Notes: generated by a model not told the origin, from the sequence alone. 64,000 bases of DNA from an uncultured Clostridium sp. (GCA_900543695.1 UQSG01000001.1:10136-74135); one strand, 5' to 3'; positions 783 through 31,053 are shown, counted from the stretch's first letter. Translations and numbers: made by a program.

Positions 783-797
783 AATTCCTGCCCCCTT

Positions 798-1640: not shown

Positions 1641-3910
1641 ATCTGGCTCCCCTTAACATATACGAAATAACGATCCTGTATTTTGCGGACAGATCCCTTC
1701 GCGCCGCCGGCAATCTGAATTTCCGGCCTGTTGAAGGGCCCCATACGGATCCAATCTACAGCGGCGTCACCGTTCCAGTCCGCGGTATAGCTGCATTCGC
1801 CGTCAGAAGCGGTAATTTTGCCGGCTCCTGTGCCGCGCCGGTAAGAGAACGAGAACGGAACCACCGTACGGTCCGCTTTTGTAACGGTATATGCCTCCGT
1901 TTCCAGAGAGGTCCAGCCGTCCGGAAGACGCGGCACAAGACGGAGGCCCCGTTCCGGTGCAATATCGTCGATTCCCAGCAAAAGCCGCGCACATTTTACG
2001 ATTTCCGCCTGCTGAACTGCATTTCCAAGATCGCTGTTGCGATACCAGAACCGTTTCGACCCGTGGACGATCACGCCCTCCGGCACGATGTAGCTGTGAT
2101 CGGTATGATGATAGCAGAACATCGCCGCCGTTTCAATGCATTCCGTCATTTCCTCGTAGCGGTCCAGCATAATCGCCGACTGCGTCAGATAGCCCTGTCC
2201 GTAGCCCATCTGCCGTCCGGATTCCGGTGCATAAAATACTTCCTTCTGCGCCAGGAACGTACGGTTCAGCAAATCAAACCATTCCGGATGCTCATACGAC
2301 ATATCGTATCCAAACATATCGCTGTAAATCAGGAGGTCCACCATCCGCTTATATTCATACGTCCAGCAATCGTCCGTCGTATCTGTATATACCTTTCCGT
2401 AGCGCGGATGCTCCATCAGGAAATGTCTGCCGGCCGCCTCGCGGAGCGCTCCTGCAAAATCCGCAAGCTCAGAAGCATAATCCGCTTCACCAATTTCACG
2501 GAACAGCTCAGCGTATCCTAAAAGCGCAAAAGAAGAAATCAGATTGGAGAAAAGATCATAGCCGCCCGTAATCTGCGTGCTGGTCTCCGATTCTGAAAAT
2601 AAAATATCGGTAAAATTCGACTCCTTCGGATGCGCCTTCTGCCACAGGTAATAATCCGCGGCATCCTTCAGCTCCTTCCGGTGCTCCTGCAGCCACTGGC
2701 GATCCACGACGCCCTTCCGGAACAGAGTAAAGATAAACAGCATGACAGCCGCGTGTCCGTCGTTTTCCTTGCCTTCGTTAAATAAATCGTTTTCGTCCTT
2801 TGCAACCAGATTGGCCACGCGCTTCCAGTGCGGAATCGGGAAACGGACGGAAGGATAATACAGCAGCTTATGGAGGTAATCAGCCGCAGGCACCACGCGC
2901 TTAAAATAACCGAAATTGGTCAGCTCCATCAGCGTCCTTCCGATGTCGCGCGTCCAGACGTGGCCGCCGTAGCTGTCACTGTTTTCCTTAAAGGTTCCGA
3001 AGCCCAGATAGCAGCCAAAGTTGCACGTATACGGCGTGGAAGTATGCGAACGGCCATCGTCCTCAATTTTGCCGTGCGCCATATCCATAATGTTTGCACG
3101 GTAAACGTTCGTATAAACCTCCGCCATCGGCGCGCCGGAAAAAGTGACATCCGGTGCGTCGAAGCCTTCGATTTCTTTCTTTGCATCCGAAGCCGGCAGC
3201 TCGTCCCGGAACTGGTACAATCTGCGCGCCAAACGGTCAATATCCGCATAATAAGCTCTGCTTAAGAAAAAGTCCTGATCCACAAGCGTCCATTCCGGGC
3301 GCAGCTCACCGCCGGCCAGGAGGCCGGTTACGGCAGATACGGCTACGTTTGCACGCTTCGAGTCCTCCCGAAAAAGCATGATTTCCTTAATTTTCTTATC
3401 CGAACGGAGCCGGTATCCAAAAACCCATTTGGTGCATTTTTCCGCCGATTCCGAAGTATTTTCCATCAGCTTCATGGCAGCGTCCTTCAGCGCCTTCGCA
3501 TTCGGATCGGAGACGAAGGGCTCCTGATACGGGGCGTCAAATGCCATCAGCTGCTCTTCCTCTTTCGGACGATAGTACAAATTATAGTTCCACGCATTTA
3601 CGCCGAAGATCACGGAAATCAGATCCTCTGTACGGTCTTCAAATATCACGCGGATCCGCATGAGACGATCCCCCAGGAAAAGACGAATGGAATGATCATA
3701 CATTGCTTCGTTCTGCGCCCACCATTCCGAACAATAATCGGAATCGGTAGCCATTCCCAGGAAAAACAGGGCTTCACACGCTGCCGGGAACGCAAGCGTT
3801 TCGCGATCAATTTTGCGGACTACGCCGCGTTCGTTTCTCGAAACAGAAAACGGGATCCCACATACTTCCAGCGTTTCCGGTTTTTCAGTCTGCTGATATT
3901 GATAAAACAT
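1637..3910 (-). CDS. Large cytoplasmic glycoside-hydrolase-like protein, (alpha/alpha)6-barrel-like, family unassigned
   Basis: 757 aa with no signal peptide. Strong RBS AAGGAGGAAA-N5-ATG. ATGA overlap with the ulaE start indicates translational coupling. Motifs GHVWTRDIGRT, ENDGHAAVML and GQGYLTQSAIMLDRY are typical of six-hairpin glycosidases. Family not determinable by eye. Confidence 0.4.
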   Translation of the reverse strand: MFYQYQQTEKPETLEVCGIPFSVSRNERGVVRKIDRETLAFPAACEALFFLGMATDSDYCSEWWAQNEAMYDHSIRLFLGDRLMRIRVIFEDRTEDLISVIFGVNAWNYNLYYRPKEEEQLMAFDAPYQEPFVSDPNAKALKDAAMKLMENTSESAEKCTKWVFGYRLRSDKKIKEIMLFREDSKRANVAVSAVTGLLAGGELRPEWTLVDQDFFLSRAYYADIDRLARRLYQFRDELPASDAKKEIEGFDAPDVTFSGAPMAEVYTNVYRANIMDMAHGKIEDDGRSHTSTPYTCNFGCYLGFGTFKENSDSYGGHVWTRDIGRTLMELTNFGYFKRVVPAADYLHKLLYYPSVRFPIPHWKRVANLVAKDENDLFNEGKENDGHAAVMLFIFTLFRKGVVDRQWLQEHRKELKDAADYYLWQKAHPKESNFTDILFSESETSTQITGGYDLFSNLISSFALLGYAELFREIGEADYASELADFAGALREAAGRHFLMEHPRYGKVYTDTTDDCWTYEYKRMVDLLIYSDMFGYDMSYEHPEWFDLLNRTFLAQKEVFYAPESGRQMGYGQGYLTQSAIMLDRYEEMTECIETAAMFCYHHTDHSYIVPEGVIVHGSKRFWYRNSDLGNAVQQAEIVKCARLLLGIDDIAPERGLRLVPRLPDGWTSLETEAYTVTKADRTVVPFSFSYRRGTGAGKITASDGECSYTADWNGDAAVDWIRMGPFNRPEIQIAGGAKGSVRKIQDRYFVYVKGSQI

Positions 3911-3939
3911 AAGCTTTCCTCCTTATTCATTTTTATCGT

Positions 3940-6900
3940 TTATACATGTGCCGCCAGTGCAAAGATTCCGCCGGCTGCATCCGCCTCACTGGCGATGATT
4001 CGCAGCTCTTTCATTTCTTTAAATTCACCGAAGTCCAATTCCAGCAGGTTGAACACCGTGCTGCAGCACTCAATCGCGCGGTTTTTGCACCAGAGGCTCC
4101 GCTGCGGATAGGCCGGAGGCTGAGCCTGCCGGTAATCCGTTTCTCCCGGCGCGACGGGCATCGCAGGAATCTCGCTTCGGTCCGTATCCGGCACATATGT
4201 TGCAAACCCCGCAATCACCTCATTTCCGAAGCCCATATCGGCAGTGCCGGGATAATAAACATCATAGAGATATATGGGACGAAAATACGAGTCTTTTTTC
4301 ACGGCCTCCGCCTCTGCGCGGAAAATTCTGCTGAATACGTCATGGTTGTCGATAAAAGCGCTGAAAAGCACGTAAAGCTTTTTCATTTTCCGGCCTTCAA
4401 GCGAAATCGTGACAACTGGATGCTTCTCTTTGCTGAATGGAAGGAACCCGTTCGGATTCAGAGAAAGCGGGACGGAGGGCAAAATGGGAATGGCTCCGTA
4501 CTGCTCCCAAAGTCCTTTCATAAAGGAGTCCGGGCCCTGCATCATATGGCCATGCGAAGGATGCAGACCGATTTCCCTCCAGTACGCGCTCGGCTTGCAC
4601 GCCTCGTCCGGGATCGGGATCGGGACGACCTGCGCATGCGCCGGCGCGGCTTCGATCTCCAGCGGATAATGGATCGGGCCCTGCAAAGTGGCTTTGTTCT
4701 TACCGGGAGAAAAAAGAATCTCACCCGAGCGGATTGGGAAAACGATCGTTCCGTTTTGCTTCGGCAGAACGGTTCCCTCCGCAGTCAGAAGCTGTCTGCC
4801 AATCAGGAGCTTCCATCCGCCTGTAAGCGCCTTTTCAGACTGATTCCAGACTTCCACTAAAACGGAATTTTGCCCTGCCGCAGCGGCAGCGCGGCAATAT
4901 ACCGCGGGTAAAGAAACCAGCGCGCAGGGATGCAGGAATTCCCTGCCTCCAGCCCGCAGGCGCAGAAAGAGCATTCTTCTGGCAAAATTGAGAATTCCGA
5001 ACCATCCGTAGCATTCGTATTTTTCCAGCAAATCGCGGCGAACAGTTCCCGTGAGTTTATTATTCTGCCATTCCAGCGAGGAGAAAACACCGCAGCGGTC
5101 TTCCACGCCGATCAGCTCCGCATCGCCTTCTATCCGCAGAGAAAAAGAATCTCCGCAGGCCGCCGTCATCTCATAGGTGCAGCGGATCTGAATGGGTTCC
5201 CAAGAGCAGGATACCGTAAGATTTCTTCCGGAGCCTGCTTCAAATTCTACGCTGCTCCAGCCGCAGTGCAGCTCCGGCTCAAGCGTCCATTTTTTCCCTT
5301 CCGCTTCGGCCGTAACGCGGAAAGACGGCGGGCAAAGAACGCGTATAATCTTACGCGTGTCATCCTCTATTTGCAGCTGCATCGAAAAGCCGTTCGTTTT
5401 GGACGTGTAGCTGATTTTGACGCCAGGCAGCTGCAGAGAAGCCTCCGGCCAGTCCTCCGGAATACACGGCGCAATTACCGTTTTATTCTCCGGCATATCG
5501 CGCTTCAGGCCGAAAATCGACTCGATAACAGCCTGAGAAAATACCGCTGCCGAAGGAGAAAAATAAGCAAATCTTTTTTCGTTCGCCGTTTCCGGCCAGG
5601 ATCCGCGCTGATAGCTGCCGCACACTCTGCGCGCAATAAAGGACAGCGGACGCACGGCTTCTTTTTTCATGCCGACAGAGGCGTACGCAGCAGAAGCAAA
5701 CGGCTGCATGTCCGAGCCGCACTGCATTCCCCACGTGGGGACGCCCCAATACGCATGATCGCCAAAGTGATTGGACTGATAAATTTCGCCCTCCGGACCA
5801 GTCATTCGATGCAGCAGGTGATCCAGCGCAGAAACTTTATCAGGATCGTCAATTTCATCGTATAGGATGGGATAAGTAATGCCGTGATACGTTGTTTCCA
5901 GACGAAGCTCTCCGGAAATATCTTCGTACCATGCCGGTCTGCCGAGATCCTTCAGCCATAGGGTTCGATACCATTCCGCCCTGCATCTGCCCGCTTCGGC
6001 GGAATAAAACTCTGCCTCCTCCGGCTTTCCCAGGATCGATTTGATGTAGGACATGATTTCCATCATTCTCACGCCTTCGATTCCGGTTGCCGCACCCTTT
6101 CCCGGGGTGCTTTCGAAATCCTCCTGATTTCCGATCTGCGTTCCCCAGCCGATTACGCCGCTGCCAACGGGATCGTATTCCGCAAAGCTCTGCCATAAAG
6201 CTTTTTCCAGAAAAGGCTCCGCTTCCTCGGCAAAGGCGAGGTCTCCTGTCATTTTAATATAATGCTCTACTTCCCGGAAAAAAAACTGATTATTTCCGCC
6301 CCAGTCACGGCGCGCCGAACCATCGGGGCACAGATCAGGGATCGCGCCGCTTTCAAATACGCGCTGCATCTGGCTGCGGAGACATTCCCGCACTCTGTCG
6401 AATCGGCCATTCCATTCTTCTGCCGCAGTATGCTCCATATGCCACATCGTAGGCCAGTGCTGAATGCTTTCAATCCAGCCGTAAGGACGAAGCCATGCAT
6501 ATTCCACATTCAGCAGCGCATGTCCGAATGCTTCGTTCAGCGCAGCATCCGGAGTATGAATCCGCCACTGTGCCAGAAGATCATCATAATAGCGGATGAC
6601 GCGTTCTTCCTCTTTTACCGGATCGCATCCGGCCAGCTCGACAGCACGCTCTTCCTGTTCTGAAAATCCAACGACGGCAAACAAATCCGTTCCCGTTCCG
6701 TTTGCCACTGCATACGTGCCGTACCTTCCGAAATCGCCCTCTAAAGACATAATCTTGAGATCGGAAAAGTTCCCCTTTACCGCCGTGACGAGCGGACGCT
6801 CTTCGCGCCGGATCAGGACCGTATTGCCGGACAGCTCAGCCGAGCCATGCTCGCAGTCGATTTTTTCTCCGGCCATGCTCTGATTGGGAGAGAAATGCAT

Positions 6901-7326
6901 AAAAGCTATATTTCCCGCGCCGAATTTCAGCCAGAATTTTCTCGGAGCATCACTGTGGATATGAAGCAGCGCCGCGCCCTCCCAGAGCATGTTTTCTCTT
7001 CCAAAATGGAGAGGATACCAAGACGCCTGAAAAGAAGTTCCGTCCGGAAGCTTCACTTCGCTTCTCAATCCGCCCGGGATATTGTCTGCGGTCGTTTCCT
7101 CGCTGCATTCCTGATAAGTAAGCCAGCGCGGCTCGCTTTCACCGACACCAATTACAAATTTTGCCAACAATACGTGTTCCGCACCGCGCGCCTGTGTATG
7201 ATCATATGTCATTACGGCGCCGTTCGGATACGCTTGCCTGAGAAAGACCAGACACTGCTGATAGGCGCATGCCCGCTCGTCCAGCAGCTCCAGTGTGGGG
7301 GAAATGTCGCTTTCGTTTTGTCTCAT
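3940..7326 (-). CDS. Very large (1128 aa) cytoplasmic glycoside-hydrolase/phosphorylase-like protein, family unassigned
   Basis: RBS AAAGGAGAA-N6-ATG. Central (alpha/alpha)6-like segment WLRPYGWIESIQHWPTMWHMEHTAAEEWNG with beta-sandwich flanking regions. No signal peptide. Divergent from the AraC regulator gene. Confidence 0.35.
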   Translation of the reverse strand: MRQNESDISPTLELLDERACAYQQCLVFLRQAYPNGAVMTYDHTQARGAEHVLLAKFVIGVGESEPRWLTYQECSEETTADNIPGGLRSEVKLPDGTSFQASWYPLHFGRENMLWEGAALLHIHSDAPRKFWLKFGAGNIAFMHFSPNQSMAGEKIDCEHGSAELSGNTVLIRREERPLVTAVKGNFSDLKIMSLEGDFGRYGTYAVANGTGTDLFAVVGFSEQEERAVELAGCDPVKEEERVIRYYDDLLAQWRIHTPDAALNEAFGHALLNVEYAWLRPYGWIESIQHWPTMWHMEHTAAEEWNGRFDRVRECLRSQMQRVFESGAIPDLCPDGSARRDWGGNNQFFFREVEHYIKMTGDLAFAEEAEPFLEKALWQSFAEYDPVGSGVIGWGTQIGNQEDFESTPGKGAATGIEGVRMMEIMSYIKSILGKPEEAEFYSAEAGRCRAEWYRTLWLKDLGRPAWYEDISGELRLETTYHGITYPILYDEIDDPDKVSALDHLLHRMTGPEGEIYQSNHFGDHAYWGVPTWGMQCGSDMQPFASAAYASVGMKKEAVRPLSFIARRVCGSYQRGSWPETANEKRFAYFSPSAAVFSQAVIESIFGLKRDMPENKTVIAPCIPEDWPEASLQLPGVKISYTSKTNGFSMQLQIEDDTRKIIRVLCPPSFRVTAEAEGKKWTLEPELHCGWSSVEFEAGSGRNLTVSCSWEPIQIRCTYEMTAACGDSFSLRIEGDAELIGVEDRCGVFSSLEWQNNKLTGTVRRDLLEKYECYGWFGILNFARRMLFLRLRAGGREFLHPCALVSLPAVYCRAAAAAGQNSVLVEVWNQSEKALTGGWKLLIGRQLLTAEGTVLPKQNGTIVFPIRSGEILFSPGKNKATLQGPIHYPLEIEAAPAHAQVVPIPIPDEACKPSAYWREIGLHPSHGHMMQGPDSFMKGLWEQYGAIPILPSVPLSLNPNGFLPFSKEKHPVVTISLEGRKMKKLYVLFSAFIDNHDVFSRIFRAEAEAVKKDSYFRPIYLYDVYYPGTADMGFGNEVIAGFATYVPDTDRSEIPAMPVAPGETDYRQAQPPAYPQRSLWCKNRAIECCSTVFNLLELDFGEFKEMKELRIIASEADAAGGIFALAAHV

Positions 7327-7492
7327 CGTTCATTCTCCTTTGCATTCTACTTTCCGCAGGATTCATTTGCCCTCATTATATCGGGCGCCTGCTGAAGGTA
7401 AAATTGCACAAAACATATTATTGATGGACAAAAGCGCAAAACTGTGCTAAAATCTGAAAAAGAAAGAACAAGAAAAAGGATGAGTTTATTTT

Positions 7493-8305
7493 ATGCCGAA
7501 AATAAAATATGTTGGCCGGTTATATGAAAATACGTACCGCATCAATCTTCACACGCATGATTTCTGGGAAATTGTACGCTATACCAAAGGAAGCGGTCTG
7601 GTAGAAATTGACGGAGAAATCATTCCTTTTCAGGAAAACGATATTTTTGCGATCCCGCCGAATGTCCCGCATACGGACTATTCCGATACGGGCTTTCAGA
7701 ATTATCATTACACCTTCAATGATGACGACTTCAACAGACTCTCTTATATGAAGTTTCCGGATACGGAGAACAACGATTTTCTGACGATCATGAAGCAGCT
7801 CTATCACGAATATCATTTGAAGCGCAAAAATTATCAAAACATTATAGACAGCCTCTATACGGTTTTGTTTCACTATATTCTGGCATTGTCCGAAGAAGCG
7901 GAAAGCAATCAATATGTAGCGCTTGTCATCAATGAAATCATCAGCAATATTTCTAATCCGGAATATGAAATTCAGCAGACACTGCAAAAAATTCCGTTAA
8001 CGGAAGACTATTTTAGAAAATTATTTTTCCAGGAGACCGGAAAGACGCCGCTCCAGTATCTCACGCAGAAGCGAATCTCTTTTGCAAAGCAGCTGCTCTG
8101 TCTTCAGGCCCATTCCGGGATTTCCATTCAGGAAATTGCCTGGCGGTCCGGATTTGCAGACAATTATTATTTTTCCCGTGTTTTTAAAAAGGTTACGGGC
8201 GTCAGCCCCAAATATTGGGCGGAGTACGACAAACAAAAAGCAGAGGAAGATAATGAGCTTCCCAAGCGCAATTATCTTCCTCCTGAGACAAAGGATTATG
8301 AATAA
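7493..8305 (+). CDS. AraC/XylS-family transcriptional regulator (N-terminal cupin sensor, C-terminal HTH)
   Basis: 270 aa. C-terminal AraC signature ..QEIAWRSGFADNYYFSRVFKKVTGVSPKYW. N-terminal beta-rich cupin region. Sits in the sugar locus divergent to the 1128-aa GH. Confidence 0.85.
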   Translation: MPKIKYVGRLYENTYRINLHTHDFWEIVRYTKGSGLVEIDGEIIPFQENDIFAIPPNVPHTDYSDTGFQNYHYTFNDDDFNRLSYMKFPDTENNDFLTIMKQLYHEYHLKRKNYQNIIDSLYTVLFHYILALSEEAESNQYVALVINEIISNISNPEYEIQQTLQKIPLTEDYFRKLFFQETGKTPLQYLTQKRISFAKQLLCLQAHSGISIQEIAWRSGFADNYYFSRVFKKVTGVSPKYWAEYDKQKAEEDNELPKRNYLPPETKDYE

Positions 8306-8340
8306 AGCGGTCTTAATGGATCGCTTTATTTCTTTTTCTT
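8304..8340 (+). terminator. Intrinsic terminator after the AraC-family gene
   Basis: Hairpin AAAGCGGTC-ttaatg-GATCGCTTT followed by ATTTCTTTTTCTT, 1 nt after the stop codon. Confidence 0.55.
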
Positions 8341-9489
8341 GCTTCGTACGATCACAACGACGAAGATGATTACAACAACTGCAATCGCGCCGATCAGCAC
8401 ATAAACCAGCCAGCCGTTTCCGCTGTCCGCATCCTCTGTGCTGCCATTCGTCGTCGGTACGGGCGTCTTTTCCGCAGCAGGCGTTCCGTCTGTTCCTGCA
8501 GTCGGCTCCGTCTCCGACGTAGGCTGTTCGGGAGCCGGCGTGCTTTCTTCCGCCTTCTCATAGACAGCCAGGTTATCAAGGCCAAAATTATTAGCGCGGT
8601 TGATAAAAGCAAACAGGCCTGTTACCGGTACCACGGCTTCATCGACGGTAGCCACAACCGCACCCTCAGCGTCTTTGATTTCCACCTTGCGATAGGAATC
8701 GCCGGAGAAGAGCTCCATTCCTGCCAGAGAAGTATCCCAGTAATTTTCATTCCAATGCGTCGTCACCTCGTCCGGTTCGGACATCGTAATCGTGCAGACG
8801 AGATTATCTTCTACGTATACGGCAATCTCGCCGTTCTCCTCCTGCACGCAGACAGACGTAAATTCCGTGAAATTAACGCCCTCGGGCATCTGGAACTGGT
8901 AGGAAACGGTGTATGCGCCGAGCATCCTGTCCGCCGCGTTTTCTACGACGCCGGTCGTCGCCTCGCCGTTAATCGGTCCCGCCGTGCCGCCATTTTTGTT
9001 TGTGTGTACGCCTACCTCCAGGATATTATCAAAAAAGTAAATAAACACGCCGGCAGCGCCCAGGAAGGACGTCAGATCCTTATCCTCATTGTCCGGCTCG
9101 ATCACCATGCCAACGGAATCGGCGGGAACGTGCAGCGCCAACGCGGATTTATAGGCATTTTCCGCCAAATTTCCGGGGATTGCCGTTTTAATGTCGAACT
9201 GCACACGGTAGTCAATCACCTCGTACATGGAATACACATAAGCCCCAGAAGGGAACATGCCGTTGTAATACGTGTTGTCGCCTTCTGTTACGACATTTTC
9301 CGCCTTTACATCGTAAGTGTTAAAATACGTGTAGAAATCGTCGGGAAGCACGCCGTCATAGCCCTCAAAATCGGTTACATATGCTTCGTTAAAGCTTTCC
9401 GGGAGCTCCGGAACAGCTGCTAGGGCCGGCAAAACGCCTGCAAAAGCCATGACTGCCGCCAAAAGACTTGCTATTATTTTTCGTTTCAT
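8326..9489 (-). CDS. Secreted cell-surface protein: signal peptide, beta-rich domain, Pro/Thr/Glu linker, C-terminal transmembrane anchor with KKKK tail
   Basis: 387 aa. N-terminal MKRKIIASLLAAVMAFAGVLPALAA signal peptide. Linker ..STPAPEQPTSETEPTAGTDGTPAAEKTPVPTT. C-terminal WLVYVLIGAIAVVVIIFVVVIVRSKKKK. RBS GAGAGGAG. Confidence 0.6.
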   Translation of the reverse strand: MKRKIIASLLAAVMAFAGVLPALAAVPELPESFNEAYVTDFEGYDGVLPDDFYTYFNTYDVKAENVVTEGDNTYYNGMFPSGAYVYSMYEVIDYRVQFDIKTAIPGNLAENAYKSALALHVPADSVGMVIEPDNEDKDLTSFLGAAGVFIYFFDNILEVGVHTNKNGGTAGPINGEATTGVVENAADRMLGAYTVSYQFQMPEGVNFTEFTSVCVQEENGEIAVYVEDNLVCTITMSEPDEVTTHWNENYWDTSLAGMELFSGDSYRKVEIKDAEGAVVATVDEAVVPVTGLFAFINRANNFGLDNLAVYEKAEESTPAPEQPTSETEPTAGTDGTPAAEKTPVPTTNGSTEDADSGNGWLVYVLIGAIAVVVIIFVVVIVRSKKKK

Positions 9490-9508
9490 AAAATGACTCC
9501 TCTCTTTG

Positions 9509-11029
9509 TTACGATTCCGACGGAATCGTATATTCTGTTACGGTACTTTCTCCGAATGTGTTGCGCGTCTGAATATAGCAGACATTTCCGTCTCTTTCTT
9601 CGGGGAGCTCGACACCGTCATTAATATTGTAATAGACCCATTCCCCCTGCGTCTCCGCATCAAAGGAAATCCGGTATTCGGTTGGATAGCCATCCAGGGA
9701 AAGGAAAAGCGCATCGTCGTCTGAAGAAAGGACCTCAGGGGCAGGCGGCGCCTCCTGCTTCCAGTAATTCAGCTTATACAGATTTGTTTTGACATTGTCA
9801 AACACAAGAAAACCGAAATCCACATTTGGTTCAATATGGGTGCTGCCATACAGCGACACTCCCTCCTGCGGCTGCTCCTTCCAGGCCATCGCATAATTAA
9901 AGCGGTTGATCAGAAGCGCTTTGGGAGACAGCTCCGCCACACCGCGGAGCGTACGTTCAAACGTCGTCTGACCGTTTACAATGTGATTCAGCTCATCCCA
10001 GTTCTCGCCGCCTTTATGGAGCGAGGCCCAGGCGATCATTTGCTCCACGCTTCCATCCGCAGCGTCTTTGTGGAAAATACGGTACATGCCTTCCCCGGCG
10101 TCAGGATCCTCTTCAGATTCTACAAAGAACCAAAGCGGCACATCGCCGGAAATGGACTTGCTTCCATCCTTCTGCTCTTCCGTATATGGAGACAAATAGC
10201 CGTTGCTGAAGCGAATATTGAAGCGCTCATCATCAAATATTTCAGTCCCCTCCGCTACTTTTTTCTGAAGCTCTGAATCAATAAAAATGATGAGAAACGG
10301 CTTGGAAGCGCGATCGGTCCCGTCCTGCAGACGATACCAGGCATCAGGATACTGTTCGTACAGCGTATAAACATCCGTCAGCACTTCATTCAGCGCATCG
10401 TAATTTTCCCCACTGAGCCGCACTGTAATGTAAATCTTGGGCGATTCGAAGCCAAGCGACGCCGATGCCTCCTTTAGAAGCACCTCCGTGTTTGCATAGA
10501 CTCCGTACGTATATTTATACCAGTCCTGTCCCGGCGTTTCCAGCCGGTAAGAAGTATAGTTGGTCCAGTCTACCGCCACGCCGTTGCAGCCGAGCGCTGA
10601 CATCCAATACAAATGCTGTCTGGCCGTTTCCGGATCTCTTTGATCATATAGGCCCATCAGCGGCGTTGTCGTCCGGTAATTGCCGCTCACCTGGACTGTG
10701 TCGGGATGCTGCGGGTTCAGCGGCCACCACCCTCTTTGCGGACGGCCGTTCGTCGTCGGTCCCGTGTCGATATCATACCACATAATCATATCCATGGTTC
10801 TTCTGCCCTCTTCTCTTGCGCTGAGCGTCTGCGGCTTTTCCACCGGTTTCGGTTCAGCAGCTCCTCTGCCGACATAGAAATAGATTCCAACCGCACACAG
10901 CACGGCCGCGCAAACAACCGCTGTTAAAGTGCAGCCCTTTGCCGAAAGCCTTTTCTTTGCATACAGTACAAACAGAAGAAGCGCGGCGATAACCGCCAGG
11001 AAAACAAGAAGCAATATTTTTACAAGCAT
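9509..11029 (-). CDS. N-terminally membrane-anchored extracytoplasmic protein, possible glycan-active enzyme
   Basis: 506 aa. Two N-terminal hydrophobic helices (LLLVFLAVIAALLLFVLYA; LTAVVCAAVLCAVGIYFYV) followed by a large soluble domain with an aromatic-rich segment HLYWMSALGCNGVAVDWTNYTSY. Function is inferred only from context. Confidence 0.35.
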   Translation of the reverse strand: MLVKILLLVFLAVIAALLLFVLYAKKRLSAKGCTLTAVVCAAVLCAVGIYFYVGRGAAEPKPVEKPQTLSAREEGRRTMDMIMWYDIDTGPTTNGRPQRGWWPLNPQHPDTVQVSGNYRTTTPLMGLYDQRDPETARQHLYWMSALGCNGVAVDWTNYTSYRLETPGQDWYKYTYGVYANTEVLLKEASASLGFESPKIYITVRLSGENYDALNEVLTDVYTLYEQYPDAWYRLQDGTDRASKPFLIIFIDSELQKKVAEGTEIFDDERFNIRFSNGYLSPYTEEQKDGSKSISGDVPLWFFVESEEDPDAGEGMYRIFHKDAADGSVEQMIAWASLHKGGENWDELNHIVNGQTTFERTLRGVAELSPKALLINRFNYAMAWKEQPQEGVSLYGSTHIEPNVDFGFLVFDNVKTNLYKLNYWKQEAPPAPEVLSSDDDALFLSLDGYPTEYRISFDAETQGEWVYYNINDGVELPEERDGNVCYIQTRNTFGESTVTEYTIPSES

Positions 11030-11052
11030 ACTATGCCACGCCTCCTATTTTT

Positions 11053-12174
11053 TCATGCATTGTTTTTTCTGCGCCGGATCACAATCCCAGCCGTCGCGCC
11101 AATGAGAAACGCCGCTGAAATGCCGAGCAGAAGTCCGGAATCACCGGTTGACGGGTTCGGCTTCTCCGGATCGGGATTCTGGTCCGGGTTCTGATCATCC
11201 GGATCGACAGGAATCTCAGGATCAACCGGATCCTCCGCCTCCGCCGTCTTACTGAGCTTCAGCGCATCCAGACGCGCACAGAATCTTCCGGAGCCATTGT
11301 CAACGCTAGAAATCGTGATTTTATGAATTCCTGCGGCCAGCTCTATCTCGCCCAGCTCCTGCTCTTCAAGCGTCCAGCCGCCGTCATGGTACAGATTGAC
11401 CGGCTCGCCAATCTCCTGACCATCGATCGCAATCTGAACGGAGCAGCTGTCATTGTTTAAGATGTAGGCAAGAGAAACGTTGTATTTTCCGGACTGCGGA
11501 ACAACGAGAGACACCGTTTCCAGAGAACGTCCAGCTTCATAGAAGTCCACGTTGACTATGGCGTCAACCGGCAGCGCTTCATGCGTGTAATTGCTTTCCA
11601 GATGGAATTCATCAGATTTGGTATATGCGTTTCCTTCAAATTCAAAGACAATTTCATCCGAGGGCGTCAGCTCCTCCAGGGTAAGATAATCCAGCAGCGC
11701 GCAGTAATACGCCGACTCCTGACTTGTAAAGGTCAGCGTATGCGTGCCTGCGGACAAAGTCATCAGGCCGACCGTTTTTTTACCAGCCTCCCAGCCGGCG
11801 CCGTTGTTCAGATTGATCTGACTGTCAATTACAGTGCCGTCAATTTTCATTTCTAAAATTCCGCCGTCCTGGTTCAATACGTATCCTAAAGTAATGAGAT
11901 AAATAGCTTCCTTTTCTACAGTGAACGTAGTTTCCAGAGCGTTTCCTGCCTCATAAAAGTTTACGTTCGCCGCACTTTCTACCGGGAGCGCCTCATGCAC
12001 AAAAGGCACCTCGAGAAAAAATTCTCCAGTTTGTGTCCATTCCTGATCTTCCAGCTCGAAGGTGATCTGCTCCTCGGCCGCACCTGCCGGAAGCAGGCTG
12101 CAAGCAAAAAGCGCCGCAACCACAAAGAAAATTAGGAAGCTAGCTTTACTTTTTCTTAATCCATGTTTTACCAT
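11053..12174 (-). CDS. Secreted surface protein with two tandem ~125-aa carbohydrate-binding-like beta-sandwich repeats, Pro/Asp linker and C-terminal transmembrane anchor
   Basis: Start reassigned to the internal Met (MVKHGLRKSKASFLIFFVVAALFAC), which follows RBS AAGGAGGA-N9-ATG. Repeat 1 ITFELEDQEW..LDYLTLEEL and repeat 2 IVFEFEGNAY..LDALKLSK are clearly homologous. Linker DPVDPEIPVDPDDQNPDQNPDPEKPNP. C-terminal LLLGISAAFLIGATAGIVIRRRKNNA. Confidence 0.55.
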   Translation of the reverse strand: MVKHGLRKSKASFLIFFVVAALFACSLLPAGAAEEQITFELEDQEWTQTGEFFLEVPFVHEALPVESAANVNFYEAGNALETTFTVEKEAIYLITLGYVLNQDGGILEMKIDGTVIDSQINLNNGAGWEAGKKTVGLMTLSAGTHTLTFTSQESAYYCALLDYLTLEELTPSDEIVFEFEGNAYTKSDEFHLESNYTHEALPVDAIVNVDFYEAGRSLETVSLVVPQSGKYNVSLAYILNNDSCSVQIAIDGQEIGEPVNLYHDGGWTLEEQELGEIELAAGIHKITISSVDNGSGRFCARLDALKLSKTAEAEDPVDPEIPVDPDDQNPDQNPDPEKPNPSTGDSGLLLGISAAFLIGATAGIVIRRRKNNA

Positions 12175-12338
12175 TTTAAAAATCCTCCTTTTCTTTTGAC
12201 AACTGTTCTGCCTAAAAAGATACCCCAAACATACATTCTTTTAAATAGACATTATCGTTTTTTTGTTGGACAATTCATAACACATTTTTTTGTAAAAAAT
12301 GTTTGGCGATAAGAAAATCTGGATATTTTTGTAAAAAA

Positions 12339-12373
12339 GAAGATAATTTCAATTTTAATTTGAAATTATCTTC
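12339..12373. repeat. Perfect 14-bp AT-rich inverted repeat (GAAGATAATTTCAA-N7-TTGAAATTATCTTC) between the kinase and surface-protein genes
   Basis: Read directly. On the minus strand it is followed by a U-run, so it could be a weak terminator after the kinase gene, or an operator. Flanked by two TTTTTGTAAAAAA direct repeats in an AT-rich ~190-bp spacer. Confidence 0.5.
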
Positions 12374-12421: not shown

Positions 12422-13885
12422 TCAGCGTTCCAGCATTTCCTGATACAGAGCATATTTTTCTCTGTAGACAGGAACCTTATGCGCGTCCGGAGAAAAGGTC
12501 TTCCGAATATGAACCATTTCTCTGGCAGCCGTATGATAATCCGGATATGCGCCGCAGCAAATGGAAGCAGCGATCGCAGCGCCCATTGCGCCGAGCTCTT
12601 TTCCGTCTACGACCTGCAGGGGCGTCTCAAGAACGTCGGCAAACAGCTGCATCCACACATCTGAATTTGCCGCGCCGCCCGCAATTCGAATATAAGGCGG
12701 CGTCTTTCTGTACTTCAGCAGTCTTTCAACATGCTGCTTGTGGGAAAATGCGACGCCCTCATATACCGCCCGCAGAAGATGCTCCGTACCATGACCGCTG
12801 TGCAGTCCTACCCACGCAGCATGCTTCCGGTTCCGTGCGTTGCTGCCGTATAAAAACGGGAAAAACAGAAGCGAAGAGGATTCCGGCGCTACAGAGGCCA
12901 CCATATTGTCGATTTCCCCGTAAGAGGGCTTATCCTTCCCAAACAATATGCCGCGTACCCAGTCCAGATTCCCTGCGGAAGTCGGACTGCTTTCTTCGAT
13001 AAGGTAATATCCCGGCATACAGAAAAGCGAATGATTCACGCCCTCCTCCGGCGCAACCGGTTCCTGCGATATATATTCGTTGATGCTCCACGTTCCGGTA
13101 ATAACGCAGATTGGAACGGAATCAGAGACGTCCATGGCGATCGCGCAGGCATCGATATCGAACATGCCTCCGCACACCGGAATTCCCTCGGGAAGCCCCG
13201 TACAGGCCGCTGCTTCTTTCGTTACGCAGCCACAGTGCGCTGAGGAATCCGCTAACGGCGGCAGACATTCCGCAATCTCCGGGATTCCGTAAAGTCTCAG
13301 CAATTCCGGATCATACGCTTTCTTCCGGAGGTTCAGAAGTCCCGTTCCGGAGGAATCCGTATATTCAGCGAAAGGACGGCCTGTCAGCATAAAGCGGATA
13401 TAATCCTTTGCTTCAAACACCCATTGAATGTTCTGATATACCTCCGGCTGATTCCGCTTCAGCCAGGCAAGGAGCGCAGTCGGCTGACATGCCAGAGTGG
13501 ATTGAAGATTCAGCAGCCCCGCCTGCGCCGTCGTTCCGTTCTGCTCCCATTCCCGAACGAGCTCGGCCGCCCGCTGGTCTGTCGAAGCAATTGCCGGCGC
13601 GCACGGTTTGCCGTCCTTTCCCCAGAGATACAGTCCTTTCCCATGACCGGTACATCCCACTGCGGCAATTTTCTCCGGAGCAATGCCGGAAGCAGATATC
13701 GCCTTTTGTATGGCAGCCGTCGTCTTCTCCCACAGAAAAATCATATCCCGTTCGTGATAGCCTTCCCGCACCACTGTAACGGGAGTTTGTTCAGAGGCAG
13801 CGCTCATCTGCTGCCCGCTGGAGGAAAATACGGCGGCCTTGATATTGGTTCCGCCATTGTCAATCCCTACAAAATATCGTTCCAT
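12422..13885 (-). CDS. FGGY-family carbohydrate kinase (pentulose kinase; L-xylulokinase/ribulokinase-like)
   Basis: 487 aa. N-terminal GIDNGGTNIKAAVF actin-fold ATPase motif. C-terminal FGGY motif IRIAGGAANSDVWMQLFADVLETP. RBS GAGGAG-N8-ATG. Sits between the isomerase-like gene and the surface-protein genes. Confidence 0.75.
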   Translation of the reverse strand: MERYFVGIDNGGTNIKAAVFSSSGQQMSAASEQTPVTVVREGYHERDMIFLWEKTTAAIQKAISASGIAPEKIAAVGCTGHGKGLYLWGKDGKPCAPAIASTDQRAAELVREWEQNGTTAQAGLLNLQSTLACQPTALLAWLKRNQPEVYQNIQWVFEAKDYIRFMLTGRPFAEYTDSSGTGLLNLRKKAYDPELLRLYGIPEIAECLPPLADSSAHCGCVTKEAAACTGLPEGIPVCGGMFDIDACAIAMDVSDSVPICVITGTWSINEYISQEPVAPEEGVNHSLFCMPGYYLIEESSPTSAGNLDWVRGILFGKDKPSYGEIDNMVASVAPESSSLLFFPFLYGSNARNRKHAAWVGLHSGHGTEHLLRAVYEGVAFSHKQHVERLLKYRKTPPYIRIAGGAANSDVWMQLFADVLETPLQVVDGKELGAMGAAIAASICCGAYPDYHTAAREMVHIRKTFSPDAHKVPVYREKYALYQEMLER

Positions 13886-13906
13886 ATCCCGTTTCTCCTC
13901 TGTCCG

Positions 13907-15100
13907 TTATGCCTGCGCCTCGGCAGCAGGATAATGCTTCAGCATAACAAGCGGTTCATATGCGCTGGCATTTTCGACGAGCACGCCGTTCGAAGCGGCA
14001 GGATAAGAAACAAAAAATTCATCTTCGCTTTTCTGTCCAAAGCGCAGCATGGTCGCCGCAGCACAGCGCTGCCCGGCCAGCTTGCCGTAGCCCTGCACAA
14101 CGATGCAGCCGTATGCGGTGTCATCCGTGATCCGTGCAGAGCAGCCTGGATATACAGTCAGCTCTTTTGCCGCAATGTACTCGTTTCCGTATACAATCTG
14201 CTTTACCATATAGCTTTCCGTTTGTTCCAAAATAATGGGCGGACGGAAATAGTGTTCTTTATATTGCGGATCGATGTTCTTTTCCCAGTCCATCATTTCA
14301 ATAACATAGTCCGGATCTCCCCAATGCTCCGGCGGACAGTTTTCATAGAGGAAGCTGTCGTCATAGATTTCGCTGTCAGTAATATTTTCGAAGACCGCAT
14401 TTACGTCCGAATTCCACTGCGGTTCATAAGTAAGATAGGAGCCGGGAGCATGCAGCACTCCGGGCGGCGTATACCAGCCGGTTCCCAATTCGATCCGATA
14501 CGCTCTGGAAAGCTCTGTGATCCGCAGATCCCGCTTTTGATAGTCCCTCAGACGTTCCCGCAGATCATCCTTGGTGGTATCCGCAGTAAATCCAAAATAA
14601 GTGTGCGGAAATTTTCCGGGATAGTTATTATATTGCGGCGGATAATAATACGCCTCCGGTTTTCCCAGCTTTCCGACGCGCGCTGCAGCTTCAAAGCCCA
14701 GATGCATATGATGGAACAGAGGTCCCTCGTAATCAAAAAATTTGGAGTACATCGGCCACGTCTGGTGCCGTCTGTAACAGTTCTCTCCGATCATTTCTTC
14801 CCGAAGCGTATCGACAAATGCCTTCAGCGTGATTCTTTCCCCGCTGCAGCCATCCAGGTTTACATAGCTCATACCTTCGTCCGGCGCGGCGTCGGGGCCG
14901 TTCATTGCTGTAATTACAGAAGAAAACCAGCGTTCCTTAATGGAACCGCGTTTTGTGCCAAGCGCATAATAATCATCGGGATGCAGCCGCAGACGTCTGC
15001 CCGCCGTTCCGAAGCGGCGCGGTACGAATGTCGGGATAAGCGGAAGAACACCGCCGCGATCCTGAAAAAATGAATTTATAATTTCTTTTTCTGAACTCAT
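13907..15100 (-). CDS. Type-I phosphomannose-isomerase-like cupin protein (putative sugar aldose-ketose isomerase)
   Basis: 397 aa. Segments KFFDYEGPLFHHMHLGFE, EAYYYP and GTGWYTPPGVLHAPGS..EPQWNSDVNAVF parallel the Zn-binding and cupin motifs of class I PMI (KLLD..SIQVHPDD; ECWYII; FYYVPSGTLHA..ETQQNSDATYRV) as recalled. RBS AAAGGAAGAG. Confidence 0.45.
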   Translation of the reverse strand: MSSEKEIINSFFQDRGGVLPLIPTFVPRRFGTAGRRLRLHPDDYYALGTKRGSIKERWFSSVITAMNGPDAAPDEGMSYVNLDGCSGERITLKAFVDTLREEMIGENCYRRHQTWPMYSKFFDYEGPLFHHMHLGFEAAARVGKLGKPEAYYYPPQYNNYPGKFPHTYFGFTADTTKDDLRERLRDYQKRDLRITELSRAYRIELGTGWYTPPGVLHAPGSYLTYEPQWNSDVNAVFENITDSEIYDDSFLYENCPPEHWGDPDYVIEMMDWEKNIDPQYKEHYFRPPIILEQTESYMVKQIVYGNEYIAAKELTVYPGCSARITDDTAYGCIVVQGYGKLAGQRCAAATMLRFGQKSEDEFFVSYPAASNGVLVENASAYEPLVMLKHYPAAEAQA

Positions 15101-15447
15101 TTCATCTCTTCCTTTCTATATATTCTGTATATCAGTGTATAAATAAAAAGAGATTCTCTCAATGTACAATTTCTTGTTATCCATGGACAAATGCGTAAAA
15201 CCGGCTGCGGAAACGGAAGACGGCAAAATGTAAACCCAATGAGAAATGGATCACGGCAGATCTGACAATGGGCGCCGTCGAATCGAAATTTGCAGATATT
15301 ATCTGGCAAAATGAAGCAATTTCATCCGCCGGGCCTGCAAGCAAAGCCAACAATTGCTGGGCTGGAAGAAGAGCACATCTTTTACTGTGCTGAGGAGGAG
15401 CTCGAATATCTGCGCCGCCTGGTTGCAGAATACGAGGAGGAATAGAC

Positions 15448-15757
15448 ATGCAGGACTTCTTTCTTGATCGTCTTAATAAGAGTATTGCTGCAGGCTGGCT
15501 GGTTCTGGCCGTTATTGTGCTGCAGCCTGCTCTTTTAAGAATGCGTCTCGCCGGTTCTGCTTCTTGAAGGCGAGCCCCGGGAATTCATGATTTCCGGCAA
15601 GGATGAAACAGTTCTGGTTTACGTCTATGAAAGCCCGGCAGCCGCAGCGAAGCAGCAAGGGCTTGTTTCCAGCGACGGTTTTAGAATAATAATAAAGCAA
15701 AACGAAAACGAGTCATCCGAGATCATCTACGAATGGATTTCAGCGCCGCATTGGTAG
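15448..15757 (+). pseudogene. Apparent frameshifted remnant of a small membrane-anchored protein gene
   Basis: ATG at 15448 encodes MQDFFLDRLNKSIAAGWLVLAVIVLQPALLRMRLAGSAS then stops. The +1 frame from ~15539 continues ..VSPVLLLEGEPREFMISGKDETVLVYVYESPAAAAKQQGLVSSDGFRIIIKQNENESSEIIYEWISAPHW and stops at 15757. A one-base indel near 15530-15545 would join the two. Lies in a ~740-bp region that is otherwise non-coding. Confidence 0.3.
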
Positions 15758-15840
15758 CTCCGCGGCAACACGATCGCATTCTATGTCGGTACGGATGCGG
15801 CGGGCGCTTCCCCTTTCCGTTCTTCTTCGAGCCCTGTTTA

Positions 15841-16566
15841 TTATAAAACCTTAGAAAGAAAGTCCTTCGTCCGTGCGTGCTGCGGATTTCCAAACAGCTC
15901 CTCCGGCGTGTTTTGTTCGATGATCACGCCTTCATCCATAAACAGGACGCGGTTTGCCACCTCTTTTGCAAATCCCATCTCGTGTGTTACCACAATCATC
16001 GTCATGCCTTCATCCGCCAGCTCGTGCATCAGAGACAGCACCTCGCCTACCATTTCCGGATCCAGCGCGCTCGTCGGTTCGTCAAACAGCATAACCTCCG
16101 GATTCATGGCAAGCGCCCGCACGATCGCAACACGCTGCTTCTGCCCTCCGGAAATCATGGAGGGATACGCGTTGACCTTGTCCGCAAGCCCGATCCGTTT
16201 CAGCAGCCGGTTCGCATTTTCCGCCGCCTCTTCCTTTGTTTGCAGCTTCAGCTTTACCGGAGCAAAAGAAATATTTTCCAGAATTGTAAAATGAGGAAAT
16301 AAATTAAAATGCTGAAAAACCATCCCCATGCTGCAGCGGATTTTATTAATATCCACATTTGGTGCCGTAATATCCACGCCTTTAAAAAGCACCTTTCCGC
16401 TCGTGGGCGTTTCCAGCAGGTTCAGGCAGCGCAGGAACGTGCTCTTTCCCGAGCCGGAAGGGCCTATCACGACAACCTTTTCATTTTTTTGAATTTTCTC
16501 GCTGATACCGTTTAATACGATTTTTTTGCCGTCAAACGTCTTTACGAGATTTTCAGTTTCGATCAC
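15841..16566 (-). CDS. Polar amino acid-type ABC transporter ATP-binding protein (GlnQ/HisP-like)
   Basis: 241 aa. Walker [10 protein letters not shown]. Signature [15 protein letters not shown]. Walker [13 protein letters not shown]-loop VVTHEM. Start overlaps the permease stop by 14 nt. Confidence 0.9.
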
Positions 16567-18622
16567 TTCTGTTCAATCTCCTTTCAAACCGCTTAAATAC
16601 GGCAGACAATCCAAATACCAGAATCAGATAAATCAGCGCCACGAATAAAAGCGTAAAGAACGCATCCGCCGTCCGGCTCCGAACCAATTCTCCGGCCCGT
16701 GTGAGATCGATCACTCCAAGATATCCGATTACAGAAGTTTCCTTCAGTACCGCGATAAATTCATTGCCAAGAGCCGGCAGGATATTTTTGAATGCCTGCG
16801 GCAGCACGATGCTCTTCATCGTCGTGACCTGTGACAGCCCGAGCGACCGTCCCGCCTCGGTCTGCCCCTTATCTACGGAATTGATCCCCGCGCGTATAAT
16901 CTCAGAAACGTAAGCGCCAGAATTGATGCTGAAAGCAAAAATACCAATTAATACCGCTCTGTCCGAGAAAACGAATATGACGTTGTAAGTAATCAGAAGC
17001 TGCACCACGACCGGCGTGCCGCGGATTACCGTCGTATAAAATTCCGCAATAAAATTCAGAAACCGCAGCACAGGATTCCTCTTTTTTGCAAGGATCGTCT
17101 GATGGTTCCACACCTTAACGATCGCGATCAGCATTCCGATTATGACGCCGAAGCCCGTCGAGGCCACCGCCACGAGCAGCGTATTCCCCAGACCCTCCAG
17201 AAACAGCTTGTACCGATTGTCCCGGATAAAGGTTTTATCGATCATCTCTTTAAAATATGAGACAATTCCCTGAAAAAAGCGAACGAAGGCGTTTCCCTCC
17301 TCCTGAGGAGCTTCCCCGGCAGGCGCAGAAGCACCGGAGGCCGTGAAAATATTTTTCAAACGCATTTTTCCGACGCCGGAAAATGCCGGGGCGTCGCTGT
17401 ACAGGCCCTCCGCCGCGTCATATAAAACGGGCACGATTACGCCGTCGTCCTCATTCTGCCTGAGTTCCTCACATTTCGCAGCCAGGTCTGTTTCCTGTGT
17501 CCAAAGCGCGTCCTGCGCCTTTGCCCATTCCTCATTCCCATTCTGATCGACCAGCAGGATTCCCTGATCCAGCGCCGTTTCCTGCCAAAGCTCCGGCAGC
17601 GCGCCGCTGCGGTACGTTATTACGTTCCAGCCGATTTCTTTCAGCAATTCAAAAAAAGAATTGATCCATTCCCGGTTCCAGGTGTATCCCGAATTCTTTG
17701 GGTTTGCAAAAAAATCGGATACGATCAGGTCCATTCCGTAACGGTATCCCTCCGTACCGAACAGCTGCCCGCTGCGCAGGGCAAACGGCACCGTAATACG
17801 ATCTCCCGAGGTAATAATCTCCGCAGTATAAACGTATGGCTTCTCTGCCGTCCAGACGTTTTTTTCGGTAAAATCCTCGATTTCAATCCCGGAAACGTTC
17901 GCGCTGGCATTCCCTCCCGACAGAATATCAATTCCTTCCAGAAGAAACGAGCCCTTTTCCGCACCGTCCGGATCGTAAACAGCAATCGAAACGTCCGTTT
18001 TCACGTCTTCCTCCCGCGGATTAAACAGGTTGAGCGCAAAGGAAACCGTACCGGCCTCCGGATCCGTCTCAACATCCACCGAAACAATCGCCGGAGCGCT
18101 GCTGAATATCAGCTCAATCCGATCTGCAAGGCAGGCGCCGGATACAGACGCATCCGAAGCGCGTTCAAGCAGTACAATCGTATTTTCCCCCGTATGCAGC
18201 AGCGGCGCGATATTTTCTCCGGCCAGAGCGCCGTTTACATAGACCGCGGCAGCTCCCTGGGATGAGCCGAAATCAAGCAGGACGACTTCCGCAGGAGGAT
18301 TTGCCAGAGAAATCGTTTTCCGGTACCACACGCGCGTTTTCCCCTCCGGAAGCGCCGAATAAGAAGGAAGGAGAACCGTGCCGCCGGAAGCAAGAGATTC
18401 CGGAACCGACTGAGGAATTTCTTCGTCAGACGCGTCATCCGTAAATAACTCCCATTCTCCTGCCAGTGAAACGGTCTCTCTGGTATTTCCCACAATCACG
18501 GAGGACTGGCCTCCGTCTTCTGCAGCGGAAAAGGAGCCGCAGCAAAGGGCGGCAAGACAGAGCGTTAAAATTAAAATTCTGCCCGGTAAGCGGAGCGTAT
18601 TATTTCTTATGTGTTTCATCAA
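16553..18622 (-). CDS. Fusion protein: signal peptide, catalytically truncated GH2-glycosidase-like extracytoplasmic region (~460 aa), then a polar-amino-acid-type ABC permease domain (~220 aa)
   Basis: 689 aa in one open frame. N-terminal [32 protein letters not shown]2 sugar-binding jelly-roll pattern [52 protein letters not shown]2 sandwich-domain motif [14 protein letters not shown]. Start of the GH2 TIM barrel [56 protein letters not shown], but no catalytic acid/base or nucleophile segments follow. Then HisM/GlnP-like permease ..[72 protein letters not shown]. Start overlaps the stop of the upstream GH2 gene (ATGA). Confidence 0.6.
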
Positions 18623-29637: not shown

Positions 29638-29654
29638 GAAAGAGGTGTGTTTCC

Positions 29655-31022: not shown

Positions 31023-31053
31023 TAATAGATTATAAAGGAAAGAGGTAACGCAT

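Follow-up and report, generated by a model that had tools for sequence, protein, structure and literature searches.

Glycan-active proteins of Gram-positive bacteria reach the cell surface in several described ways. Closest in architecture to one of the proteins considered here are SiaBb2 and SiaBb1 of Bifidobacterium bifidum, which have no LPXTG motif but combine a Sec signal and ectodomain with a C-terminal transmembrane helix, and whose surface exposure was established by flow cytometry (PMC5626965). In these proteins the catalytic domain and its carbohydrate-binding modules (CBMs) share one anchored polypeptide, whereas in the system that we describe here such modules are distributed over three. 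The system lies in a 64,000-nt (64 kb) stretch of DNA from an uncultured Clostridium sp. (GCA_900543695.1 UQSG01000001.1:10136-74135), hereafter the window, and is centred on three adjacent open reading frames (ORFs), all on the minus strand: P3 (11053-12174; 373 aa), in which a signal peptide precedes two CBM6/35/84-like repeats and an acidic/Pro linker leads to an NPSTG sorting signal; P2 (9509-11029; 506 aa), a membrane-anchored probable endo-glycanase of an orphan family with a predicted fold like that of glycoside hydrolase (GH) families GH99 and GH71; and P1 (8326-9489; 387 aa), a type-I membrane protein of SiaBb2/SiaBb1-type architecture with a predicted concanavalin-A-like jelly-roll ectodomain. 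From their architecture and predicted folds, natural gene fusions, synteny and a shared promoter-like motif, we propose, with a probability of roughly 60%, that P3, P2 and P1 together make up a multimodular surface glycanase, split into a catalytic part and binding modules, and supply a glycan pathway that probably yields an L-pentose.

Each protein has recognisable counterparts. GH71 enzymes have the barrel-plus-sandwich layout seen in P2, and a D/E-x-x-E dyad is common to GH71 and GH99 (PMC12394665). P2 shares its fold type with the GH99 endo-alpha-1,2-mannosidases/mannanases (MANEA, 6zdc; OpGH99A, 5ngw) and the GH71 alpha-1,3-glucanases (8yfh, 9fnf), but it has no sequence similarity to them in HMMER and profile searches, the dyad is not conserved, and its genomic context leads to a pentose route rather than to mannose or glucose. 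The fold of P1 is like that of other concanavalin-A-like jelly rolls (GH16, the L-type lectins Emp47p/ERGIC-53, DUF1080/PF06439, CBM66), without sequence-level membership in any of them. P3 has the signal peptide, pentapeptide, hydrophobic stretch and basic tail of the NPXTG/LPXTG sortase substrates (NF033846, TIGR01167), but it scores under the NF033846 cutoff and has no cognate sortase within the 64 kb. Its repeats are similar to CBM6, CBM35 and CBM84 modules (MiXBM, 7ehg), but P3 is a stand-alone, putatively wall-anchored protein rather than a module appended to an enzyme, and the locus is without xanthan-type enzymes (GH5, GH9, PL8).

In Escherichia coli the L-xylulose/L-lyxose route runs through the kinase LyxK, the 3-epimerase SgbU and the 4-epimerase SgbE. 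The window locus encodes the same enzyme types, an FGGY kinase and L-ribulose-5-phosphate 3- and 4-epimerases, but sets them inside a putative glycan-degradation locus among orphan enzymes and includes neither a decarboxylase nor an ascorbate-type phosphotransferase system. In the literature we found no description of this system, of a new GH99/GH71-like family, or of glycan loci feeding L-xylulose-5-phosphate/L-ribulose-5-phosphate.

Results

The most direct evidence on how P1, P2 and P3 relate to one another comes from homologues in which their domains are joined. L001_786, a 786-aa lipoprotein found in loci L001, L023 and L025, carries a P2 domain (aa 83-517) followed by a P1 domain (aa 557-771); in the 1155-aa lipoprotein L027_1155 the P2 domain is followed by about four P3-like modules, and in the 652-aa lipoprotein L030_652 by one. 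The fused genes, each combining the P2 barrel with P1 or P3-like domains, lie at 10001-12361 in L001, 9728-13195 in L027 and 9968-11926 in L030. These natural fusions indicate that the domains of P1 and P3 serve as accessories to the catalytic module, P2, and that the three work as a unit. The window lineage has the same modules on three polypeptides, each anchored separately.

Export signals are widespread in the P2 family. In every homologue with a classifiable N-terminus (48 of 61) this end is a two-transmembrane hairpin or a signal peptide, either plain or of the lipoprotein type, with the N-terminal two-helix hairpin present in at least 16 of the 61 and a lipoprotein signal peptide in at least 22; Bacteroidota homologues combine a signal peptide with a type IX secretion system (T9SS) tail, and a dockerin occurs in one homologue. 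These signals place the P2 barrel outside the cytoplasm, which agrees with the hairpin of the window protein being read as loop in, domain out. Predicted anchor types (sortase signal, lipoprotein, C-terminal helix) are interchangeable among orthologues. One metagenome-assembled genome (MAG) of the Oscillospiraceae, SIG424, holds at least five P2-family paralogues on different contigs (L008, L009, L014, L019, L037), which suggests that the family has expanded in some lineages.

In the window, the gaps between P3 and P2 and between P2 and P1 measure 23 and 19 bp, a good ribosome-binding site stands in front of each gene, and the best reading is that P3-P2-P1 form one transcription unit. P3 starts at the ATG at 12174, which has an AAGGAGG ribosome-binding site, rather than at the upstream TTG at 12228, which has none. 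A sequence-only reading of the window had recognised three consecutive surface-protein genes here, had described P1 and P3 as a signal peptide, beta-rich domains, a linker, a C-terminal hydrophobic helix and a basic tail, and had assigned N-terminal helices to P2. The ORFs and their spacing, the layouts of P1 and P3 and the two helices found in P2 bear out that description. It had also excluded S-layer-homology (SLH) and dockerin domains, and in the Pfam search, too, P1-P3 were free of SLH, dockerin and further wall-binding domains at E<=0.1; its placing of the set between an AraC regulator and a sugar kinase agrees with the AraC-family gene at 7493-8305 (plus strand, convergent with P1) and the FGGY kinase gene at 12422-13885 (minus strand). 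Proteins identical to those of the window occur in 'Clostridiales bacterium' MAGs, and the closest named species is Candidatus Egerieisoma faecipullorum (93% for P2).

P2 opens with a two-helix hairpin (10871-11017, minus strand; aa 5-23 and 33-53) whose helices are linked by the basic loop AKKRLSAKG, and the predicted topology has the N-terminus out, the loop in and the catalytic domain out. A (beta/alpha)8 barrel (9755-10807, minus strand; about aa 75-425) and a C-terminal beta-sandwich (9521-9742, minus strand; about aa 430-503) follow. From its single sequence P2 has no match in Pfam, NCBIfam or the PDB sequences (HMMER), and a profile of 32 homologues returned nothing from the PDB sequences at E<=10. 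An AlphaFold2 model built on the alignment of 32 homologues (predicted local distance difference test score, pLDDT, 90.8; predicted template modelling score, pTM, 0.84) consists of the barrel and then the beta-sandwich; its barrel fold is close to solved GH99 structures, and structural alignments with GH99/GH71 structures give 10-14% identity. Invariant residues of the family include D154, D251, E329, D345, R376, Y379, E389, H398 and E400. The sole dyad-like stretch in P2 is W-K-E-Q-P-Q-E389-G, which across the family reads W-x-E/x-E/Q-P-Q-E389-G; the window protein has Q at position 386, where E, Q, Y, H or V is found in the family. We rejected membership of P2 in GH99, as neither its sequence nor the dyad fits, and by the same two marks P2 does not appear to belong to GH71, although it shares the barrel-plus-sandwich layout. 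On the strength of the model, P2 is a triosephosphate isomerase (TIM) barrel of the GH99/GH71-like kind and probably acts as an endo-glycanase.

P1 has a signal peptide (aa 1-24, cleaved between ALA and AV), a beta-rich domain, a Pro/Thr/Glu-rich linker of about 48 residues (aa 313-360) and a C-terminal transmembrane helix (8347-8409, minus strand; aa 361-381) with a mean Kyte-Doolittle value of 3.4, followed by RSKKKK. No xPxTG-type pentapeptide and no match to an anchor hidden Markov model were found in P1. Nearly all of about 20 diverged members of its family have the same order of signal peptide, domain, Pro/Thr linker, strongly hydrophobic helix and Lys/Arg tail; no pentapeptide is conserved before the helix among them, and two, P0202 and P0211, show a TETGD-like stretch. 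The single sequence matches nothing in Pfam, NCBIfam or the PDB sequences, the family profile likewise gives no meaningful PDB match, and an exhaustive HMMER scan of 1.84 billion representatives yielded only 25 relatives. In the model (pLDDT 84.6 overall, with most 10-residue blocks of the domain at or above 94) the ectodomain takes the form of a concanavalin-A-like jelly roll, similar to those of GH16 enzymes and L-type lectins. Its conserved polar residues, the loop E131-P-D-N-x-D-x-D together with E158 and H162, appear closer to a lectin metal/sugar site than to a GH16 cleft, and P1 probably partners P2 as a lectin or CBM-like protein.

P3 begins with an N-terminal Sec signal peptide, MVKHGLRKSKASFLIFFVVAALFACSLLPAGA, cleaved ahead of AEE. 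Two repeats follow, repeat 1 at 11665-12075 (minus strand; aa 34-170) and repeat 2 at 11245-11664 (minus strand; aa 171-310), which are 39% identical to each other (E 7e-35). P3 belongs to Pfam CBM_6, with 38.0 bits over two stretches against a gathering score of 28.9, and falls below the cutoff for CBM_35 (24.1 bits against 28). Repeat 2 is the portion that aligns with PDB entry 7ehg (E 9e-8), the structure of MiXBM, a CBM84 xanthan-binding module of Microbacterium sp. XT11 (PMC10881899). The match is the only significant one to a PDB sequence among P1, P2, P3 and the three orphan cytoplasmic proteins of the locus. Xanthan was considered as the substrate on account of this match and rejected as unsupported: the locus is without GH5, GH9, PL8, GH88 or GH38 genes, and the match reflects a generic beta-sandwich only. 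The repeats are beta-sandwiches of the CBM6/35 type, with glycan binding as their predicted function. L001 also encodes, apart from its fused lipoprotein, a protein of about 1135 aa built of P3-like CBM repeats.

The C-terminal part of P3 has the three elements of a sorting signal. An Asp/Pro-rich linker leads to the sortase-type cleavage motif NPSTG (11143-11157, minus strand; aa 340-344), which ends three residues ahead of a hydrophobic stretch (aa 348-366) that, with the tail RRRKNNA, occupies 11056-11133 (minus strand). This stretch is rich in Gly, Ser and Thr and has a mean Kyte-Doolittle value of 2.35, against 3.4 for the anchor helix of P1. P3 passes the TIGR01167 LPXTG_anchor model (20.0 bits against a cutoff of 15.9) and falls below NF033846 Rumino_NPXTG (19.6 against 23.5); a protein identical to P3 is named 'LPXTG-motif cell wall anchor domain protein' by NCBI. 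Orthologues at 60-91% identity retain NPTTGD, NPGTGD or NPGTGN while the surrounding linker varies freely, and NP[STG]TG[DN] is kept in five orthologues. A sortase probably cuts exported P3 between the Thr and Gly of NPSTG and joins it to peptidoglycan.

The surface set appears to be tied to its neighbours at the level of transcription. A promoter-like element, TTGTCCA-N20-ATT, sits about 70-100 nt upstream of the start codons in all three minus-strand operons of the locus: at 12244-12273 (minus strand) upstream of P3, at 15161-15190 (minus strand) upstream of an operon comprising a 397-aa protein and the kinase, and at 7402-7431 (minus strand) upstream of the operon that lies downstream of the set. 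Its extended form is TTTGTCCAT-N18-TnnATT, often with CGC[AT]T ahead. Independent support comes from 554 kb of related loci, where the pattern has 14 matches against about 1 expected, 10 of them directly upstream of orthologous operons (L002, L006, L007, L011, L012, L017, L030). This suggests common control of the three operons, probably by the AraC protein, and it is possible that the element is an AraC-dependent promoter. A terminator-like hairpin with a T-run (12339-12373, minus strand) separates the kinase gene from the P3 promoter, and a hairpin with a 14-bp stem (8300-8331) between the convergent ends of the AraC gene and P1 is likely a bidirectional terminator.

The upstream operon (12422-15100, minus strand) consists of the gene for the orphan 397-aa cytoplasmic protein (13907-15100, minus strand) and that for the FGGY kinase, whose best model is XylB with a score under the cutoff. 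The downstream operon (93-7326, minus strand) encodes two orphan cytoplasmic proteins of 1128 aa (3940-7326, minus strand) and 757 aa (1637-3910, minus strand) and both epimerases, the L-ribulose-5-phosphate 3-epimerase (798-1640, minus strand; NCBIfam 316 bits against a cutoff of 200) and the 4-epimerase (93-782, minus strand; 360 bits against 257). None of the 397-, 757- and 1128-aa proteins has a signal peptide or a Pfam, NCBIfam or PDB sequence match, in the PDB neither from the single sequences nor from family profiles; the one exception is that the 757-aa protein gives a faint six-hairpin signal. Clostridial and Bacteroidota versions of the 397-aa protein share 64-78% identity, a level usual for core metabolic enzymes, and this protein is a candidate for the pathway isomerase.

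Synteny of the gene set extends through Clostridia of gut and rumen and, in part, into Bacteroidota. Among 37 loci with a P2 homologue, many of them on short contigs, 14 have an FGGY kinase nearby, and of the orphan proteins that of 397 aa is present in 13, that of 757 aa in 14 and that of 1128 aa in 11; P3-like CBMs are found in 13, P1 in nine and an AraC regulator in 15. On a sediment contig of the Bacteroidota, a T9SS-tailed P2 homologue lies beside the kinase, the 4-epimerase, homologues of the 757-aa and 397-aa proteins and a sugar transporter of the major facilitator superfamily (MFS). Of the components of a Gram-positive polysaccharide-utilisation locus, the regulator, surface set and catabolic enzymes are conserved, and a sugar transporter is not, as far as the Clostridial loci go.

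The GH2 and ATP-binding cassette (ABC) genes at 15841-20958 were considered as further members of the system and rejected; they are not conserved with the set save in L007, apart from a weak GH2 match in L027. Within this region, a 689-aa ORF (16553-18622, minus strand) joins a signal peptide and a GH2-like N-terminal/Ig domain (Glyco_hydro_2, 23 bits) to a polar-amino-acid-type ABC permease (aa 472-689), so that the GH2-like beta-sandwich seems to stand in for the usual solute-binding domain; the protein is 74% conserved in L007, and a gene for a GlnQ-like ATPase (15841-16566, minus strand) comes after it. The 740 bp between the ABC ATPase and 397-aa genes (15101-15840) contain only a 90-aa ORF without a family match, and an Rfam scan of the window, this interval included, returned no family. 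Distant from the locus, a GH78 alpha-L-rhamnosidase gene (56911-59439, minus strand; Bac_rhamnosid6H, 394 bits) lies among housekeeping genes. A plus-strand block at 27913-33525, which coincides with a local reversal of AT skew, encodes a 2-oxoacid dehydrogenase complex (E2, E3 and a fused E1) and, after it, a DeoR regulator; the genome is otherwise that of an anaerobe-type gut Clostridium.

Discussion

The following sequence of events would account for the arrangement of the locus. P2 would be held on the outer face of the membrane by its N-terminal two-helix hairpin; P3, once exported, would be cut at NPSTG and linked to peptidoglycan; and P1, probably a Ca-dependent lectin-type module, would stand on its Pro/Thr stalk above a permanent C-terminal membrane helix. 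P3 and P1 would bind the glycan at the cell surface and P2 would cleave it internally. The resulting oligosaccharides would then be imported and dismantled by the cytoplasmic orphans of 1128, 757 and 397 aa, the key sugar being isomerised, for which the 397-aa protein is the candidate, and phosphorylated by the FGGY kinase. The 3- and 4-epimerases would convert the product to D-xylulose-5-phosphate, which would enter the pentose-phosphate pathway by an L-xylulose-type route, and the adjacent AraC regulator would probably govern all three operons. From the enzymes encoded, we infer that the glycan pathway fed by the set probably yields an L-pentose.

Several observations weigh against this account. 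The GH99/GH71 dyad is not conserved in the P2 family, where of its two positions only that of E389 is invariant, equivalence of positions having been judged from sequence only; the mechanism of P2, and even catalysis itself, is therefore putative. Its topology was assigned by the positive-inside rule and by analogy with homologues, and the fold of P1 by itself fits a lectin and a GH16-like enzyme alike. As regards P3, more distant orthologues read NPKTSD or PVATGD at this site, or the motif is gone and a plain membrane helix takes its place, and no PF04203 sortase was found among the sizeable ORFs of the window. The four matches to TTGTCCA-N20-ATT in the window, against 0.11 expected, are inflated, the pattern having been derived from the same sequences. 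There is no conserved sugar transporter in the Clostridial loci: the window has an amino-acid-type ABC system, and an MFS transporter is present only in the Bacteroidota locus L003. Finally, all relatives come from uncultured MAGs.

These points bear on several alternatives. The ambiguity of the P1 fold leaves some room, well short of even odds, for P1 being a second enzyme beside P2, a jelly-roll hydrolase of the GH16-like or DUF1080-like (3-keto-disaccharide hydrolase or xanthanase) type. However, the GH16 catalytic ExDxxE strand motif is absent from P1; the nearest match, E131-P-D133-N134-x-D136, lies in a loop of the model, has Asp as its third acid and varies at position 135, and the gathering score of the DUF1080/3-keto-disaccharide hydrolase family (PF06439) is not reached. 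It is somewhat less probable, and in our view unlikely, that NPSTG in P3 is vestigial and that all three proteins remain in the membrane through loss of sortase function. The sub-threshold NF033846 score, a window without a sortase gene and the plain helix that stands in place of the motif in the orthologues of L010, L011, L012 and L021 are what such a loss would leave, but conservation of the motif in five orthologues inside a fast-evolving linker, a hydrophobic stretch weaker than the true anchor of P1 and the TIGR01167 match argue for a functional signal.

A pure capture apparatus, in which all three proteins are non-catalytic glycan binders held by membrane helices and sortase is bypassed, would suit the plain C-terminal helix and lectin-like fold of P1, the CBM repeats of P3 and those distant P3 orthologues that are without a sortase motif. 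It is close to what the sequence-only reading had put forward, namely a dedicated substrate-capture apparatus whose members carry no sortase motif and are anchored by C-terminal helices instead of LPXTG. That anchoring holds for P1; P2 has its N-terminal hairpin, and the NPSTG of P3, within a signal that passes TIGR01167, contradicts the claim that no sortase motif is present. Capture as such is well represented by P3, a tandem CBM protein, but P2 is a probable endo-glycanase rather than a binding protein and the set a degradative unit, and we consider pure capture improbable. What did stand from that reading is that the proteins are extracytoplasmic and cell-anchored, given export and anchor signals on all three, and that a functional link joins them to the sugar genes alongside, given synteny in many genomes and the promoter-like motif common to the three operons. 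Least probable of all, and by our estimate very much so, is a role in remodelling the cell's own envelope or exopolysaccharide, autolysin-like or by trimming, in place of nutrient uptake: the close linkage, kept across phyla, to genes for an AraC regulator, a kinase, two epimerases and cytoplasmic enzymes, the lack of glycosyltransferase or export genes in the loci, and the dockerin on one relative and T9SS tails on others, which are typical of secreted degradative enzymes, all speak against it. We thus retain the split, surface-anchored glycanase as the preferred explanation.

With respect to novelty, the modes of display are not new. Anchoring by a C-terminal helix, which the sequence-only reading had taken for an unusual solution, is already documented on a Gram-positive surface glycosidase, SiaBb2 (PMC5626965), NPXTG signals are covered by a dedicated NCBIfam model, and both stand-alone CBM proteins and multimodular surface glycanases are standard in Gram-positive glycan loci. 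What is new is the family of putative catalytic modules represented by P2, with a GH99/GH71-like predicted fold, no sequence relation to those families and different conserved acids; the jelly-roll family of P1; and a conserved locus made up almost entirely of orphan families, in organisms known as MAGs only. A more far-reaching interpretation, which we offer tentatively and would put at less than even odds, is that P2 founds a new glycoside-hydrolase family whose catalytic apparatus differs from that of GH99/GH71, that the locus of about ten genes is a complete, previously undescribed pathway with which uncultured Clostridia of gut and rumen, and some Bacteroidota, degrade a glycan and route its key sugar via L-xylulose-5-phosphate/L-ribulose-5-phosphate, and that at least four further orphan families (those of the 1128-, 757- and 397-aa proteins and of P1) are its new enzymes and lectin.

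The locus is widely conserved in uncultured gut and rumen Clostridia and consists mostly of families without a Pfam, NCBIfam or PDB sequence match. The fusions prove by computation alone, as is rarely possible, that an enzyme-plus-CBM unit can be made up of three separate surface proteins acting together, as here, and the apparent ending of the pathway in an L-pentulose-phosphate route is unusual for polysaccharide catabolism. Identification of the substrate would add to CAZy a new family, with probably a CBM or lectin family that is also new, and would reveal a niche based on a dietary or microbial glycan. The locus is a well-defined target for finding a new glycoside-hydrolase family and the glycan on which it acts.

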